This document shows positions 60,355 through 60,516 of a DNA stretch of 64,000 bases, in pieces. The notes under the pieces were generated by a model that was not told the DNA's origin, did no database searches, and saw only the letters and a list, made by a program, of their open reading frames with translations. How positions within the stretch are numbered: the stretch's first letter is position 1; every line of letters starts with the position of its first letter. Both the position numbers and the translations under genes were made by a program. This DNA is from an uncultured delta proteobacterium (GTDB taxonomy: Bacteria > Desulfobacterota > Binatia > JACPRU01): contig CAVUWD010000011.1 in NCBI GenBank assembly GCA_963745025.1, positions 544,001 through 608,000 of the forward strand, written 5' to 3'.

Positions 60355-60516
60355 TCAGGTGTCGCCGGAGAAGTCGCACCACTTGGTCTTGCCGATGCTC
60401 GTGGCTCCGCCGATGATCTTCTCGAGGTCTTTCTTCGTGAGTCCGAGATCCGTCTTGAGCGTCTTGCTCAGGTTGGCGGCCTTCGCCTTCTGGGCAGGCT
60501 TCGACCGTTTCGTCAT
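60355..60516 (-). CDS. 53-aa double-glycine-leader (bacteriocin/RiPP-type) precursor-like peptide
   Basis: Hand-translated: [62 protein letters not shown]; host-like codon usage. Confidence 0.72.

Follow-up and report, generated by a model that had tools for sequence, protein, structure and literature searches.

Double-glycine leaders of the C39-peptidase type are defined by a few residues ahead of the cleavage site. For LahT150 these determinants are Leu-12, Leu-7, Val-4 and the Gly-Gly pair, and for ComA they are Leu-12, Glu-8 and Leu-7 (PMC6363468). Lone precursors have a precedent in procA and syncA, the genes of the prochlorosin and synechococsin precursors (PMC10783134). Among modified peptides, triceptides carry three-residue cyclophanes that are formed by radical SAM enzymes on aromatic-X2-X3 motifs (PMC11499958). 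Short ORFs of another kind are known from mycobacteria, where Cys-sensing polycysteine leaders occur (Ms5788A, and Rv2334A before cysK1; 10.1101/834739).

Here we describe a 53-aa ORF that lies directly upstream of cysK in a 64-kb stretch of DNA from an uncultured delta proteobacterium (the window, which is the whole stretch analyzed). As judged from the sequence, we put the probability at roughly 55% that it encodes a stand-alone double-glycine-leader precursor, processed by machinery encoded elsewhere. Like the substrates in the ComC/ComA and LahA/LahT systems (TIGR01847), the peptide has Leu at -12, an acidic residue at -8, Leu at -7, an aliphatic residue at -4 and Gly-Gly, and it shares with them a short leader, a short core and a predicted helix before the cut site. 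Unlike them, it has no transporter nearby, scores below the profile cut-offs, is Lys-rich in its N-terminal half and has no homologs in the databases searched.

The peptide resembles the prochlorosin and synechococsin precursors (ProcM/SyncM systems) in its GG-type leader, its lone gene with neighbors of unrelated function and a core with Cys and Ser/Thr, but it gives no match to the Nif11 domain, its leader is only 37 aa long and no paralog is present in the 64 kb. By language-model features, the nearest named family is that of the type-A (lacticin 481-like) lantibiotic precursors (PF04604, 0.86), which are similar in size and have a GG leader. Members of this family have several Cys, whereas the peptide has one, gives no Pfam match to the family at E values up to 1 and is not accompanied by a lanM/lanT cluster in the window. 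With the mycobacterial leaders it shares the position directly before cysK, the shortness of the ORF and a Cys near the end; it differs from them in having a single Cys, a Shine-Dalgarno site, 53 aa, a GG leader and no stable pairing with the cysK start.

The peptide ORF and its surroundings

The ORF, the end of its leader and the 16-aa core proved to be as the earlier note had described them; the strand, which it had not given, is minus (60516->60355). The GAGGAG proposed as ribosome-binding site was located, and 22 nt separate the stop codon from the ATG of cysK at 60332, again in agreement. Because this Shine-Dalgarno site 6 nt from the ATG is accompanied by a likely promoter and by codon fit, the ORF is probably a gene. 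With a codon adaptation of 0.756 and a GC3 of 0.885 (codon weights from 28 window genes), it ranked first among 203 window ORFs of 40-80 aa. When the 28 real genes were cut into 203 equal-sized pieces, the 75th percentile of codon adaptation was 0.736, a value that the ORF exceeds. Among the window ORFs, it overlaps no other recognised gene. The description of the peptide as unannotated was right for the ORF track from which that note was made, but a database of predicted proteins contains the exact protein, and its cluster there comprises 2 sequences from 3 contigs; its ESM Atlas recognition is 2697. Read-through of the TGA stop, as assessed by eye, would add 12 unremarkable residues. The features of the locus are collected in Table 1.

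Table 1. Coordinates of the features discussed (window positions unless a locus is named)
Feature	Position	Strand	Basis or remark
53-aa double-glycine-leader peptide ORF (probable gene)	60355..60516	-	translation, codon fit, predicted-protein database entry
Predicted 16-aa core after the GG site	60358..60405	-	cleavage site inferred from motif
Putative C39/PCAT recognition motif, residues 26-37: L(-12) D(-8) L(-7) I(-4) G(-2) G(-1)	60406..60441	-	
Shine-Dalgarno GAGGAG	60523..60528	-	6 nt before peptide ATG; duplex energy -8.9 kcal/mol
Candidate sigma-70-type promoter: TTGACA (60581-60576), 18 nt, TAGGCT (60557-60552)	60552..60581	-	by eye
Three perfect tandem 12-nt units, abutting the -35 box, their end being its first base	60581..60616	-	
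cysK, O-acetylserine sulfhydrylase	59400..60332	-	TIGR01139, 471.7 bits vs cut-off 350.95
C-terminal rhodanese remnant, 33 aa, no Cys	59281..59382	-	Pfam
Divergent GT39/PMT-like membrane glycosyltransferase	60780..62012	+	PF13231, 32.3 bits; no evidence of link
Duplication, 293 nt, 90% identical	57030-57308 / 57818-58110		
Candidate Chloroflexota CxC leaders (outside the window)	L006:9764-9799, L011:9816-9851, L020:9825-9860, L049:9827-9868		
Further candidate Chloroflexota CxC leaders (outside the window)	L016:8310, L069:2421 and 4697, L043:8894, L058:8888, L066:2410, L077:8900, others		

TAGGCT ends 35 nt before the peptide ATG. A consensus promoter scan did not call the TTGACA/TAGGCT pair, the -10 box of which matches 3/6 positions, and TTGACA occurs 4 times in the window. 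Judged by the form of GC-rich -10 boxes, the pair is a likely promoter of the peptide, and it presumably acts as such. The 12-nt unit next to it has 4 matches with at most one mismatch in the window, as against 0.66 expected, and 0/100 shuffles reached 4; the tandem units are possibly a regulator site or a product of slippage. A 13-nt direct repeat was also seen twice in the intergenic region (60676-60688 and 60565-60577, minus strand), one copy lying inside the promoter spacer. A 9-nt word of this repeat (60683-60691) recurs at 60336-60344 on the minus strand, just before the cysK start. The 281 nt upstream of the peptide fold at z = -2.59, largely over repeats and palindromes, and Rfam gave two chance-level matches only.

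Several other observations concern the wider window. The part from 56700 to 58320 is a mosaic of P-II copies and fragments, an HPr domain, a PTS IIA fragment and the duplication listed in Table 1. From 44600 to 55932, on the minus strand, a kdpFABC operon comes first; behind it lie a gene for a P-II protein, one for a BBP2 beta-barrel porin, a further P-II piece and kdpD, which is here paired with a sigma-54 response regulator instead of KdpE. Genes split across frames were found for a B12 radical SAM enzyme (26196-27889), a histidine kinase (36088-37924), mgtE (41869-43205) and kdpA (53974-55793). These splits suggest either that the long-read assembly contains indel errors or that the genes are pseudogenes.

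Leader, core and the machinery that may act on them

The peptide has the features used to define GG leaders, namely Gly-Gly/Ala/Ser at -2/-1 and hydrophobic residues at -4, -7 and -12 (PMC6363468); the residues in question are L26, L31, I34 and G36-G37. Together with the residue at -8, these positions match the published determinants, and the earlier assignment of a C39-type double-glycine leader is thus borne out at the level of the motif. Position -3 is Ile; the LahT substrates mostly have Ala there, and Tyr, Phe, Lys and Glu are the changes reported as tolerated (PMC6363468). The leader comprises 37 aa, and its N-terminal half is rich in Lys. A single-sequence model predicts a helix at residues 28-35 (mean pLDDT 65.8).

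Over all six frames of the window, the strict pattern L[ST]xx[ED]Lxx[IVL]xGG had a single match, which is the peptide itself, and 100 base shuffles gave none. A version that also allows GA was matched once in 60 third-order Markov windows and not at all in 1.24 Mb of cysK loci. The peptide scored below the curated cut-offs of TIGR01847 (14.4 vs 15.7 bits), ComC (14.1 vs 20.4) and DUF5836 (16.4 vs 25), so that the curated leader profiles agree only weakly with a GG leader; no mention of DUF5836 was found in the literature searched. Among the named ESM Atlas rows shown, 9/10 are peptide-precursor or peptide-substrate families. They include type-A lantibiotics (0.86 and 0.84), ComC (0.84) and microviridin (0.83), all below 0.9 and thus leads only, and three unnamed clusters of 51-56 aa (0.87-0.88) also stay below this mark.

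The core contains one Cys (C47, codon 60378-60376), which forms part of both a T-x-x-C and a W-x-D pattern. With T39, S40, T44, S50 and T53 in addition to C47, it has the residues expected of a class II lanthipeptide, a weak indication given how common these residues are. W-C-D and F-S-G fit the aromatic-X2-X3 pattern of triceptides (PMC11499958), but this general pattern is loose, is seen here in a single sequence and is not diagnostic. The window holds no cyclophane synthase and no SPASM/twitch radical SAM enzyme adjoining the peptide.

Pfam detected no C39, LanM, SPASM, YcaO or RRE domain in overlapping sets of 9, 95 and 121 window ORFs, the last chosen from 523 stop-to-stop frames to cover the gaps left by the 95 listed ORFs. 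A looser motif revealed no second GG-leader peptide in the 64 kb. Only 3.5 kb of the window lie beyond the 5' side of the peptide, and they encode a GT39-like glycosyltransferase, a DegT aminotransferase and a GT2 enzyme. The earlier statement that no maturase or transporter is adjacent holds for the neighborhood, with the correction that a split radical SAM gene lies 33 kb off. This frameshifted, B12-dependent gene passes no peptide-maturase or family cut-off; the best RiPP-type model, TIGR03975, gave 33.4 vs 281.85 bits on one of its pieces. It was rejected as a maturase, being generic, split and located among response regulators.

Searches for relatives returned none. A word-index search of predicted proteins yielded one candidate, the peptide itself, and the same was true when residues 14-53 were used as query. 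For longer proteins, 27 candidates were inspected and none was related at E values up to 10. No homolog was found by phmmer over 1.84 billion representatives (which conceal members within 50% identity), by tblastn against plasmids and phages, or in the PDB and PHROGs. With the peptide and its upstream region as query, blastn found two short matches in plasmids (26 and 40 nt), which were taken as chance. Literature joining double-glycine precursor peptides, RiPPs and cysteine synthase yielded nothing relevant in a search that covered few subscription journals; the supplementary precursor tables of RiPP-mining papers could contain the peptide or a relative. The earlier note had regarded a lack of homologs that conserve the GG motif and core as fatal to its proposal. 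Formally, this is the situation, but a 53-aa query is insensitive and distant relatives would be missed by these searches, so the leader is not refuted.

From these data we infer the expression, cleavage, export, modification and function of the peptide as follows. The gene would rely on its own promoter for transcription and on its own Shine-Dalgarno site for translation. A C39-domain ABC transporter encoded elsewhere in the genome would recognize the short helix and the Gly-Gly site formed by residues 26-37, cut after Gly37 and export the core of 16 residues, which would serve as a signal or as an antagonistic peptide. A promiscuous enzyme may first introduce one cross-link into the core in trans. 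The simplest would be a Thr44-Cys47 methyllanthionine made by a LanM-type enzyme, a proposal based on lanthionine ring size; alternatively, a radical SAM enzyme (cyclophane synthase) could join Trp46 and Asp48 in a cyclophane, and the core may also stay unmodified. The cysK gene behind the peptide, probably on the same transcript, may borrow its ribosomes, with no chemical link between the two.

A stand-alone precursor is favored by the motif match and its chance rate of one in 60 simulated windows, the codon fit, the Shine-Dalgarno site, the candidate promoter, the Atlas rows, the predicted helix and the lack of a link to cysK in the 80 loci described below. Against it stand the lack of homologs, the family scores below cut-off, the lack of machinery and of a second GG peptide in the window, the Lys-rich leader of 37 aa, which differs from the Nif11 leaders of the prochlorosins, Ile at -3, and a cysK gene without a normal Shine-Dalgarno site, which makes some dependence on the upstream ORF possible.

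Relation to cysK and other readings of the ORF

In order to place the locus, GTDB was scanned with cysK as query, and 80 loci (70-86% identical) were kept of at least 593 confirmed; 79/80 have at least 300 nt of upstream sequence. None of them shares the flanking genes of the window, and none is therefore a close relative; the genome from which the window comes is not represented among the 80. The peptide was absent from all 80 loci (best tblastn E 1.3), as was the strict GG motif, and a search for short Shine-Dalgarno-led ORFs with a loose motif gave one internal match in an unrelated enzyme and nothing else. For these 80 loci, this shows that the pairing of such a peptide with cysK is not general in this cysK subfamily, a result that speaks only weakly and implies no absence at the genus level. 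The place of the peptide beside cysK looks incidental.

In CysK, K44 (the PLP lysine), the TSGN loop, Q144/F145 and GTGGT are the same in all 43 sequences that were aligned out of 81, and by its sequence features the protein is an ordinary cysteine synthase. It departs from the 80 relatives at S38 (N in 77/80), C125 (A in 78/80) and L81 (shared by 0/80). A Shine-Dalgarno-like word lies 3-12 nt before cysK in 72/80 relatives, whereas the window cysK lacks such a site at normal spacing and has a similar one 14 nt upstream. Translational coupling of cysK to the peptide ORF is plausible, as a consequence of position. A fusion of peptide and CysK was considered and rejected, as the frames differ and CysK aligns to its relatives from residue 1. 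The rhodanese fragment reported behind cysK is present. It is a C-terminal piece of 33 residues that matches only positions 73-102 of the 102 in the Pfam model (21.6 bits vs cut-off 22.2), and Pfam found neither the N-terminal part nor another rhodanese elsewhere in the window. In the 80 loci, rhodanese gave no match at E <0.001 and three weak ones 2.2-2.7 kb downstream of cysK.

The ORF could be a relic, that is, a precursor gene left behind when a cluster was lost or rearranged, still readable and no longer processed. The gene does lie at a junction of unrelated blocks, with the truncated rhodanese behind cysK, the duplication and the P-II/PTS fragments on the left and a glycosylation block on the right, and a relic would also fit the missing homologs and machinery. 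We nevertheless consider this rather unlikely: the Shine-Dalgarno site, the candidate promoter, the reading frame, the motif and the codon fit are all intact, and some of the apparent fragments may be assembly indels, since splits are also seen in kdpA, in mgtE and in the gene for the B12 radical SAM enzyme.

A regulatory role seems improbable, in which cysK would be governed by translation of the upstream ORF, either through coupling or through ribosomes that stall on the one Cys codon under cysteine shortage. The arrangement itself would suit such control: the peptide comes first in a likely two-gene transcript, 22 nt before a cysK that, unlike 72/80 relatives, has no normally spaced Shine-Dalgarno site; the Cys codon lies close to the end of the ORF, at a distance of 7 codons; and the stop region and codons 2-4 of cysK can form a weak hairpin (-16.8 kcal/mol). 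Cys-sensing short ORFs before cysK1 are also known in mycobacteria, but at least two consecutive Cys codons are the criterion there (10.1101/834739), and the peptide has one. Moreover, the region 60290-60420 folds at chance level (z = 0.01), no terminator and no Rfam match of note were found, and the profile of a Chloroflexota CxC leader (see below) has no match in the window, its best hit having an E value of 3.4 and lying 11 kb away. A GG leader would be needless for this purpose. Coupling alone may take place all the same, but would leave the peptide unexplained. The Cys-sensing leader, which the earlier note had mentioned as a less likely alternative, is thus unlikely in view of the single Cys codon, the chance-level structure and the missing match to the Chloroflexota leader.

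It is very doubtful that the core binds the active site of CysK in the manner of a CysE tail, whether it regulates the enzyme inside the producer or is exported as an inhibitor, against which the adjacent cysK would be a protective copy. The end of the core, D-F-S-G-D-T, loosely resembles the tails DFSI, YGDGI and MNYDI (PMC9547175), and S38 and C125 are changes at conserved CysK sites. However, such tails are described as having to end in Ile (PMC9547175, PMC13040420), to which, in the H. influenzae complex, some 80% of the interaction energy is due (PMC9547175), and the peptide ends in Thr. In addition, the two do not co-occur in the 80 cysK loci, and the active-site residues of CysK are unchanged. 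A predicted complex of the CysK dimer, PLP and peptide residues 24-53 scored 0.02 vs a mark of 0.32 and was counted neither way. A single base change would turn the last sense codon into one for Ile, and we retain the idea because the contig contains indels (kdpA, mgtE and the B12 radical SAM gene) and the end of the peptide is a reading of this contig. The fuller version, for which the chances are just as slim, is that the peptide founds a new exported family targeting cysteine synthase, with the core plugging CysK and the S38/C125 cysK, its translation tied to the peptide gene, serving as protective copy. If true, a natural CysK ligand would matter much more, as CysK is being pursued as an antibacterial target.

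A spurious ORF with a chance motif would explain why no homologs were found and why every family match falls below cut-off, but we give it little credence, as motif, Shine-Dalgarno site, promoter, codon fit and absence of gene overlap coincide and the motif alone arose in one of 60 simulated windows. That CysK and rhodanese supply sulfur for a modification of the peptide, a link suggested in the earlier note, seems most improbable: gene order is the one point in its favor, whereas 0/80 cysK loci have such a peptide or a rhodanese at E <0.001, the rhodanese piece is a Cys-free tail without the catalytic Cys loop, CysK is a standard enzyme and no such system was found in the literature searched.

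A candidate cysteine leader in Chloroflexota and the place of the peptide

The cysK loci contained a different kind of upstream ORF. A short ORF with CxC or CC was present within 400 nt of cysK in 23/32 Chloroflexota loci (assigned by record titles) vs 4/48 others. The conserved leader among these ORFs encodes 10-20 aa, with CxC followed by (R/G)RG. In an alignment of 22 leaders (L066, a different ORF, was left out), the two Cys codons of the CxC are shared, as is a GCGG block. A hairpin spans the stop codon, a long-range helix precedes a U-rich run, and 7/13 predicted pairs show changes on both sides. A profile built from them matches 27/32 Chloroflexota loci (E <0.02) and 0/48 others; the matches include six sites outside the building set, all of which lie upstream of a gene or operon for cysteine synthase. 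Overall, the leaders precede cysK, other cysteine-synthase-family genes or cysK-containing operons.

At the gathering threshold, Rfam found nothing over the leader in the 8 loci scanned, and a search of titles and abstract starts did not reveal a Chloroflexota cysteine leader in the literature. Based on its conserved codons and predicted structures, the CxC leader is a candidate cysteine-sensing attenuator outside the Actinobacteria. In a locus from Methylomirabilia (L003:651-740), a similar CxC-RR leader ORF precedes cysK by 296 nt; the DNA profile of the Chloroflexota leaders gave no match to it.

As a directly testable candidate attenuator, the Chloroflexota leader is maybe the more interesting lead. 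The peptide itself is of modest value until a transporter or maturase is found; as a putative stand-alone precursor with a unique core, it would join the many lone double-glycine precursors that escape cluster-based mining.
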